This document shows positions 17,055 through 19,025 of a stretch of 64,000 bases of DNA, one piece after another (positions within the stretch are counted from its first letter, which is position 1; the number at the start of each line of letters is the position of its first letter). The notes beneath the pieces were generated by a model. The model was not told the origin of the DNA. It did not search any database and saw nothing but the letters and a program-made list of their open reading frames with translations. Source of the stretch: Octopus vulgaris (lineage: Eukaryota); contig OX597835.1 in NCBI GenBank assembly GCA_951406725.2, positions 39,122,001 through 39,186,000 on the forward strand. The letters run 5' to 3'. The position numbers were made by a program, and so were the translations under genes.

Positions 17055-17894
17055 CATACATACATATACATATACATATATATATCATACATACATACAT
17101 ACATACATACATACATGCATACATACATGCATACATACATACATACATACATACATACATGCATACATACATACATACATACATACATACATGCATACAT
17201 AGGGATAGAGATGCGGGAAAAGGAGTAACATGTGACAACCGATGCAGACTTTGTGGAGTTCATACTGAAGATAGCACCCACATCATAAGTAGTTGTCCGT
17301 GAATGTCATTACGGTATTATCTACAGCATGCTGTTGTTGCTAGGATACTCTATAATGAAATCTGTCAGAAGTGTAATCCCGAGGACAAAGAAATAAGAAG
17401 CCACAATATGGTAGAAGCCATAGCCACTCATAATAAAAAGGAATACTGGTGGAATGTACCAGTGACGACCTCAATAAAATGTAAGCACAACAGACCTGAT
17501 ATGATGATTTGGGATAGAGAAGAGAAACTGCACAGTTGTGGAAATTAGCTGCCCAGCGGATAGAGCTGAAGATCAGTGAAGAGAGAGCACCTATGGTGAA
17601 ATGTTGAGAAATCTGCTGTTACTTTATCCAGAAAACAAGTTCAGGTTTATACCTGTAATTATTGGGTTCCTGGGATGTGTAACACACTGCCTAAATACCA
17701 ATCTTGAGAAATTAAGCTTCTCAAAATCAGAAAGGAGAAAGCTAATCCGAAGACTACAGATCCAATCCATCACTGAAACTGTAAAAATCTTTAAAACTTT
17801 CTAAAGGTTTATCATTTAAATATATATGAGCATTTCTAGATATGCAAATATATGCATGAGAATACATACATAAAAAGACAAATCTGCACATACA

Positions 17895-18695
17895 TTTGCC
17901 GACGATATCAAACTGGTCGCTCCTCGCGGTAATATAGAGGATCTTCGTCGATGCCTCCACCAAATTTGGAAGTGGTCTAACAATTGGGACCTGTGTCTGA
18001 ACGTGCCAAAGTGCTGTCATCTGCCTGTCGGCTCTACTCCTGCAACTCAATTTGATTTCGAGCCGGGTCGTCTGCTGCTGGAGAGGACCGATCAGGTAAA
18101 GGACCTAGGTATCTTGGTGGATTCCTCCTTTTCGCCTTCAGCCCAGTGCGTCCATGCTGCCAACAAAGCACGCGGAATTCTGTTCTTGATTCGACGGTCA
18201 TTCGGAATGCTCACAGCAGCCATATTCCTACCACTCTATGTCACGCTGGTGAGACCCATATTGGAGTATGGGATTCAAGCCTCTTCTCCTTATCTCCTCA
18301 AAGACATACAGCATCTCGAAAGAGTCCAGAAGCTGGCTACCCGCATGGTTCATGGTCTCAAAAATTTGTCCTACGAAGAAAGGCTGAGGACGCTCGACCT
18401 TTATTCTCTTGAAAAACGCCGCCGCCGTGGTGATCTCATTCTCGCCCACAACATCATAAGCGGAAAGTGTAACCTCTCGAAAGAGCTGTTCTTCACTCCT
18501 GCTCCAGAGCGTCGGCTGCGGGGTCATTCTGAAAAGCTCTACCTGCGACGATTTCATCTCAATCGAAGGAGAGGAGCTTTCTCCGTCCAGGTTGCGGATC
18601 CGTGGAACAAGCTGCCAGACGAGATGGTGAAGATGCCGACGACCGCTTTGTTCAAAGCCTCCCTTGACCTCAAGTGGCCTGAACTCTTTACATGA
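17895..18695 (+). pseudogene. CR1 ORF2 reverse transcriptase C-terminal part (open frame)
   Basis: FADDIKL...KDLGILVD...LVRPILEY...LERVQKLATRMV...RRRRGDLI...RGHSEKL...WNKLP. Confidence 0.9.
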
Positions 18696-18783
18696 ACACC
18701 ACCCTGTACTTAACTCCATGTCCCCCTACATGGCCTTGCTATTTGCTTTTGAGCCAAATTAACTAACTAACTAACTAACTAAC
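17895..18783 (+). mobile_element. CR1-clade LINE, 5'-truncated, young
   Basis: Starts at the FADD motif; (AACT)n tail at 18760-18783; ACATACAT on both sides as a probable TSD. Confidence 0.9.
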
Positions 18784-19025
18784 ATACATACATGCATATC
18801 ATCAAAAATACCCTGTTGTTGATGTTGAAGTTCCCATGAAAGGGCCTTGGATCTAGGTTAGAAACCGGTTCTTTCTTTATTGGCAAGAAATCTTAAAATA
18901 AACTGAATAATGGCATACATACATACATACATACATACATACATACATACATACATACATACGTACGTACATACATATATACGTACGTACATACATACAT
19001 ACATACATACATACATACATACATA

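Follow-up and report, generated by a model that had tools for sequence, protein, structure and literature searches.

Old R4/Dong-like LINE families of Octopus vulgaris lie in (CATA)n microsatellites in a fixed orientation

Introduction

Why should several differently truncated copies of a retrotransposon all abut the same four-letter repeat? The question is raised by a 64,000-nucleotide stretch of the Octopus vulgaris genome (contig OX597835.1, positions 39,122,001 to 39,186,000; hereafter the window). From the sequence alone, five pieces of a LINE with a restriction-like endonuclease (RLE) had been recognised in it, each with CATA repeats at its 5' truncation point, and a targeted tetranucleotide site had been proposed. 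Microsatellite-homing LINEs are already known, so the mechanism class is not new. It remains open how the target specificity of an RLE changes, and an answer would be of direct use to gene insertion based on retrotransposons. Here we follow the five pieces from the window to the whole genome and to relatives elsewhere, and weigh what may have placed them in their repeats.

Results

Lineage copies in the window

On re-reading the sequence, all five pieces were found at the coordinates and on the strands first given, with a CATA run at the 5' end of each in element orientation. The longest is a 5'-truncated family A LINE at 17201..17895 (+) that adjoins a (CATA)n tract at 17055..17200 (+). It contains the end of the ORF, at 17819, and the first part of the 3' UTR, reaching the internal CATA tract of that UTR. 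The CCHC knuckle and endonuclease reported for this copy are present as motifs (C-x2-C-x8-H-x4-C at 17243-17296; RPD...E from 17492 on), but they are broken: a stop occurs at 17300, and the frame shifts near 17530. Nor is the segment 17201-18913, read as one copy, continuous: it is family A at both ends, but an 890-bp unrelated insertion sits inside the internal CATA tract. This is a fragment (17896..18783, +) of a young CR1/L2-type LINE; it has a (TAAC)6 tail and a possible 8-bp duplication, ACATACAT, which is ambiguous and lies within the repeat. Beyond it, the family A 3' UTR resumes for its final 130 bp (18784..18913, +), which terminate in ...GAATAATG and meet a (CATA)28 tract at 18914..19025 (+), the 3' junction of the copy.

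Two further family A pieces lie on the minus strand. One, at 6498..6778, is 5'-truncated with internal deletions and has a CATA tract at its 5' junction (6778..6807, -); the other, at 6160..6373, is diverged, retains only 3' UTR and is followed by a degenerate CATA tract (6061-6161). A (CATA)31 tract at 6374..6497 (-) is at once the 3' flank of the former and the 5' flank of the latter. Being in tandem on one common tract, these pieces are not independent.

The remaining two pieces belong to other families. Family D, the oldest, is represented by a nuclease end and 3' UTR at 35150..35587 (+), with a long CATA tract (34576..35149, +) at its 5' junction and a 3' end that lacks a clean CATA run and shows CATTCAATA at 35590. 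Family E contributes its last ORF codons and a 3' UTR ending ...AGAAGAG at 48951..49190 (-), followed by ACATACATAC, with a CATA tract at 49192..49263 (-) at the 5' junction. The 3' ends of all five, including CATTCAATA in the diverged D copy, were as first described. The mutual homology claimed for the five stands at the level of one lineage, but they represent three families, with 17201, 6498 and 6160 in A, 48951 in E and 35150 in D. A very old D/E-like 3' fragment, extra to the five, lies at 5400..5689 (+) downstream of degenerate CATA/CACA repeats, and more old lineage fragments occur at 25571-25753 and 40068-40204. The association of the pieces with CATA exceeds chance, a run being close enough to count at 3.5% (+) and 5.0% (-) of window positions.

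Unrelated frames were also seen in the window. A 206-aa frame at 914-1534 (-) presumably resembles the C-terminal part of a Tc1/mariner transposase, and a 317-aa frame at 26231-27184 (-) what we take to be the GIY-YIG end of a Penelope-like element.

The lineage had also been suggested to help explain the abundance of TATG tracts. It does so for a minority of them: when the CATA tracts of the window are merged into 30, about 6 are in contact with a lineage piece (8 were flagged, those at 14574 and 44476 being low-complexity false matches), as is 1 of 7 tracts in 55.7 kb of unselected flanks. With the small repeat library used, these counts led us to reject the lineage as a main source of TATG tracts.

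Three related, dead, high-copy families

The genome searched comprises 2.8 Gb in 227 contigs. Short queries returned 3457 and 1236 candidates for A, 2844 for E and 2174 for D. The best 40 of each were scored, so the samples are best-scoring and not random; because the search passes over simple repeats, the flanks had no influence on the choice of copies. DNA identity is about 61% between A and E and about 71-74% between D and E. Median pairwise identity within families is 83.7% (A), 85.0% (E) and 77.8% (D), compared with 94.5% for a Dong-like family of the same genome (Y2, below) and 99-100% for the nested CR1-like family. For A and E, an age of roughly 20 Myr is suggested by the rate given in PMC13282606.

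Full-length family A measures about 4.0 kb, and its full-length copies read through one broken ORF. No intact copy of the CATA lineage was seen in this genome among the protein matches listed (at least 153, at least 53 and at least 150), and the longest open frame among the at least 150 nuclease matches listed is 574 aa; target duplications and cut positions can therefore not be read from fresh insertions. Families A, E and D are related, dead, high-copy RLE-LINE families. As in the R2 group, they have a single long ORF with a non-LTR reverse transcriptase, a C-terminal CCHC motif and PD-(D/E)xK-type endonuclease, and variable 5' truncation (65 distinct positions in A, 33 in E). Their 3' termini are constant, ...AATAATG in A and ...AGAAGAG in E.

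Some individual copies deserve mention on their own account. Three family A copies on one contig, C1 (L326, L327, L328), are 98-100% identical to each other while all others are at about 84%; they probably reflect segmental duplication or carriage in another mobile unit, or possibly a late burst. The same tRNA-type SINE has inserted twice in family A ORFs (L031:6409-6760 and L004:940-1301), with apparent duplications of about 13 and at least 11 bases. The dead copies L040, L046 and L059/L220 show independent expansions of a (GTA)n/(GGT)n tract that lies in the family A ORF at master position ~726-743. In L081:4439-4617, about 150 bp of antisense (CATA)n, together with 25 unique bases, interrupt a family E ORF.

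CATA runs at 5' junctions throughout the genome

The sequence-only reading had stated that its proposal would fail if 5' junctions genome-wide showed no CATA enrichment or no strand bias. For this comparison, we masked simple repeats, aligned the loci to real long copies, joined into chains the alignments interrupted by nested insertions and removed duplicates. This gave 139 distinct copies, 116 of them truncated within the element, and a final set of 75 A and 38 E copies. Set aside were 10 non-independent A loci ending at the internal UTR tract, 7 full-length copies, 3 censored copies and 3 at the reference end; 24 duplicate loci, two window copies and one artefact (L220) were also removed.

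At least two CATA units were present at the 5' junction in 49/75 A and 24/38 E copies, and in reverse polarity in 2 and 0, respectively. The CR1-like control gave 0/22 (from 30 copies, after exclusion of 5 censored and 2 unresolved ones and of the copy in the window; Fisher p against this control 8e-9 for A and 3e-7 for E). The background rate in unselected flanks is 1.4%, and that in the window 3.5-5%. When three or more units were demanded, CATA was found at 56 of the 113 A and E junctions and each of ten other repeats at no more than 3. TAA, the repeat into which Dong proper inserts, was at none of the 113. The signal falls with distance upstream, with 51, 24, 14 and 9 hits at 60, 150, 300 and 500 bp. 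Fourteen more copies, picked by a foreign protein, replicated the result: CATA was at 7 of 9 readable 5' junctions, never reversed. Full-length family A copies had CATA at 4 of 7.

Against targeting stand the roughly 35% of 5' junctions without a CATA run (26/75 in A, 14/38 in E), part of which are probably later deletions or nested insertions exceeding the analysed flank. The targeted site proposed from 5' repeats of constant polarity is supported in A and E, but family D shows little 5' signal (3/28, with junction calls that are imprecise at 78% identity). Microhomology between run and element reached at least 2 nt in 20 of 64 junctions against 7% expected (mean 1.2 versus 0.41), values that anchoring of the alignment may inflate.

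3' junctions and pre-existing tracts

A CATA run lies within 20 nt of the 3' end in 23/26 A and 21/29 E copies, compared with 1/29 for CR1; the 3' flanks of family D fit CATA in 13/29 and the broader ACAY in 20/29. Among copies with a recognisable terminus, the 3' junction opens with ACAT in 17/21 (A) and 12/18 (E). On the proposed check of strand and phase, the junctions show one-sided polarity and a fixed 3' phase, with the boundary between G and ACAT.

The family A 3' UTR itself carries a CATA tract of 15-27 bp, 130 bp from the 3' end, often expanded to hundreds of bases (range 15 bp to >250 bp). Because tracts expand after insertion, their lengths are uninformative. Nested insertions were read by eye from 14 chosen loci. 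In three of them (L128, L118, L145) an E or A copy sits in a family A UTR tract, with the left part of the host upstream and its terminal piece downstream; in L067, L088 and L131 the left half of the host alone was seen. Copies in the 3' run of an earlier copy were found in L133, L064, L065, L019 and L125. As the nested copies of the first three loci split the tract of their host, the CATA tract existed there before insertion.

Dong-like and CR1-like elements of the same genome

A search with an Argonauta protein recovered Y1 and Y2, two young Dong-like families whose open frames are 1268-1344 aa long. Their reverse transcriptases are 30-41% identical to those of the CATA lineage, whose members share 48-62% among themselves. 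At readable (uncensored) Y2 5' junctions TAA was present in 6/7 and CATA in 0/7. The nearest relative of Y1 in the reverse transcriptase tree is a Penaeus japonicus protein (99.7/100). The Y1/Y2 loci L224-L227 and L308-L319 lie in (TAA)n, and in L313 and L318 further copies are nested in the 3' TAA run.

The CR1/L2-type family of 17896-18783 is very young, with copies 99-100% identical elsewhere, 1647 candidates, a (TAAC)n tail and some copies longer than 1.5 kb. Its 3' junctions often start AT, AC or TA, which is consistent with short tail microhomology.

Relatives, phylogeny and protein architecture

Among 80 loci listed from metagenome contigs, about 10 belong to the lineage. Two of these, L231 (open frame 1136 aa) and L232 (1164 aa), are full-length and bordered on either side by (CATA)n; in L228 and L230, the 5' end adjoins (CTTA)n. 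The foreign targets are thus read from two CATA-flanked and two CTTA-flanked elements, one copy each. For five more members (L229, L234, L235, L236, L242), the short contigs contain no flanking repeat. About 64 database protein clusters are 40-65% identical to L231, after which identity drops to about 33%; almost none are annotated, the one named lineage protein is from Argonauta hians (P0044), and the ESM Atlas returned unnamed RVT_1 clusters only.

The reverse transcriptase tree (37 rows, LG+F+G4, arbitrary root) unites the lineage at 100/100 on a stem of 0.53, and within it a subclade with all CATA and CTTA elements at 100/98. A TAA-containing group that includes arthropod and fish proteins (91.3/79) is sister to the lineage, with joint support of 79.6/90, and D groups with E in a 58-row FastTree. 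In these trees, which contain no named R4, Dong, Rex6, NeSL or HERO protein, the lineage stands apart from the TAA-flanked group. Placed in this way, by sequence and with no named references, the lineage likely belongs to the R4 clade. Its reverse transcriptase motifs presumably resemble those of R4/Dong rather than those of NeSL or HERO.

CCHC and nuclease motifs could be aligned across A, E, L228-L232, Y1 and Y2, and L231 and L232 carry RVT_1 above the Pfam cutoff. The best matches of the predicted L231 structure (pLDDT 88, pTM 0.81) are R2 structures at the start of target-primed reverse transcription (E 2.6e-35; 9nl3, 9dou, 8gh6), and a match to R2 chains by sequence reaches E 3e-28. A predicted N-terminal three-helix domain (residues 25-77, pLDDT ~95) is conserved in the lineage, and the alignment contains no N-terminal zinc finger. 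The top VIA matches of this domain are mostly Myb/SANT/trihelix at Z 5-6.3, where about 8 is decisive, and Foldseek gave no match at E<=0.001; the models are at most suggestive of a Myb/SANT-type fold. A Pfam search found no APE domain, and the single ORF with C-terminal RLE differs from the APE nuclease and two ORFs of Waldo. An Rfam scan of seven loci yielded no ribozyme family at E<=1, nor did the Dong-like L226; the 5' ends align poorly.

A more distant RLE element, L244:1-4472, sits in a eukaryotic 18S rRNA gene, at the 3' end of that gene, and has TAAAAGTCGT repeated on both sides; it is possibly an 18S-specific element with target duplication, and L271 is its close relative.

Discussion

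Protein- or RNA-directed insertion

The octopus families are 5'-truncated dead copies of single-ORF R4/Dong-like LINEs that sit in (CATA)n in fixed orientation, and we consider it probable that they do so because the element protein recognised and nicked the repeat. The architecture would comprise a predicted Myb-like domain, reverse transcriptase, CCHC knuckle and restriction-like endonuclease. By analogy with R2-group biology, the Myb-like domain and the nuclease would bind the repeat and nick the TATG strand, cleavage by the nuclease itself being sequence-specific. Reverse transcription would start at the nick, where ACAT bases at the 3' end of the RNA probably assist; the cDNA, cut short, would join the upstream CATA run via 0-5 bases of microhomology, and the tract would later grow by slippage. 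Since family A carries a CATA tract of its own, 130 bp from its 3' end, every insertion would seed a new target and a new microsatellite, which may account for the nested and tandem piles. Through such an internal UTR tract a LINE would itself plant the microsatellite that it targets, although the lineage accounts for only a minority of the CATA tracts in the genome.

Could the RNA rather than the protein find the repeat? If element RNA ended in (ACAT)n and paired with nicks or slipped ends in TATG tracts, the nuclease need not be sequence-specific. Tail pairing predicts the fixed polarity and 3' phase equally well, CATA and CTTA relatives might differ by their tails alone, and the present data do not separate protein from RNA recognition. 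We nonetheless regard an RNA-guided origin as unlikely: a repeat tail (TAAC) is present in the CR1-like control as well, yet the matches there are only 1-3 nt long and no tract is preferred, and the conserved N-terminal three-helix domain is like one proposed for R4/Dong target recognition in PMC7998251. The target might alternatively be a short motif such as ACATAC, the arrays having grown after insertion in hypermutable CATA tracts. Many copies have just 2-3 units at the junction, family A copies have been hit repeatedly in their 15-27 bp UTR tract, which itself expands to hundreds of bases, and L131 and L330 start at or past the tract edge. Three or more perfect units at 56/113 junctions, many with more than 15, and the intact foreign copies in long arrays speak against this idea, to which we give a lower chance still, although it is partly compatible with recognition of the repeat by the protein.

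Least probable by far is that there was no targeting at all, the 3' CATA being a tail and the 5' CATA arising by template jumps to a second RNA's tail, by tandem insertion or by passive accumulation in repeat-rich regions. The window is repeat-rich, and a same-lineage 3' piece does lie directly upstream on the same strand at 11 of the 73 CATA-positive 5' junctions; this is too few for tandem tails to explain the pattern, and at 54 of the 73 the tract is not preceded by any lineage or SINE piece. The polarity is one-sided (73 versus 2), passive accumulation would also have hit CR1 (0/22) and Y2 (0/7), and three hosts are split at a pre-existing tract. The explanation is already largely refuted.

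Comparison with known microsatellite-seeking LINEs

Protein-directed insertion into the repeat, the reading we prefer, has its closest parallel in Dong, described as inserting into (TAA)n with the microsatellite on both flanks (PMC3812793, PMC7998251). R4/Dong elements are reported to have an N-terminal Myb-like domain without zinc fingers (PMC7998251), and an HDV-like ribozyme has been described at the 5' end of R4 and Dong (PMC3774820). As far as these descriptions go, the octopus lineage resembles Dong (B. mori Dong, DongAg, DongBg, Darwinula Dong1/2) in its single ORF, reverse transcriptase, CCHC motif, restriction-like endonuclease and predicted Myb-like helices, as well as in the microsatellite on both flanks and the fixed polarity. 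It differs in forming a separate clade and in having (CATA)n or (CTTA)n, not (TAA)n, as its target; unlike the young Y1 and Y2, its CATA families are dead in this genome. Taken together, the sequences make it likely that a distinct lineage homes to four-letter repeats beside the TAA-seeking Dong.

The repeat itself is shared with Waldo (WaldoAg1, WaldoAg2, WaldoFs1), an APE-type member of the R1 clade whose target is given as (ACAY)n, which includes (ACAT)n (PMC3812793); the fit of family D 3' flanks to ACAY adds to this likeness. Waldo belongs to another clade and has an N-terminal APE nuclease, whereas the octopus lineage has a C-terminal RLE and an R2-like fold. We infer that the common target is a case of convergence. 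Togen, a NeSL-related element in (TG)n, and some HERO families are described as microsatellite-specific RLE LINEs (PMC4640811); the repeat of the octopus lineage differs from (TG)n.

Dong-R4 elements have been catalogued in cephalopods before. Reports speak of 51 Dong-R4 consensus families in O. vulgaris, 5 of them recently active (PMC13282606), of Dong-R4 as an old coleoid component (PMC8967140) and of a Dong consensus in O. bimaculoides (PMC9115989). In the portions of these reports that concern Dong-R4, the annotations give no target and do not separate the two lineages, and the consensus library may already include the present families. In the publications searched we found no RLE element with a CATA, TATG, ACAT or CTTA target; entries in repeat databases may bear on the claim. 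The initial statement that no CATA-targeting RLE family was known therefore agrees with the literature searched, but the same repeat class, (ACAY)n, is on record for the APE-type Waldo (PMC3812793).

A broader picture, which we hold tentatively and would not give quite even chances, is that of an old and widespread RLE clade, sister to Dong and specialised on tetranucleotides, that switched between (CATA)n and (CTTA)n and reached the Waldo target independently with a different nuclease. If this is true, (CATA)n versus (CTTA)n amounts to a one-base change of target, and the intact members are a natural pair for finding the residues, in the single Myb-like domain and in the nuclease, that set RLE target choice. 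An intact CATA/CTTA/TAA trio with a single predicted Myb-like domain makes the question of target choice testable. What would be new with respect to the known systems is a deep RLE lineage with a four-letter target that stands beside the TAA-targeting Dong in one genome.
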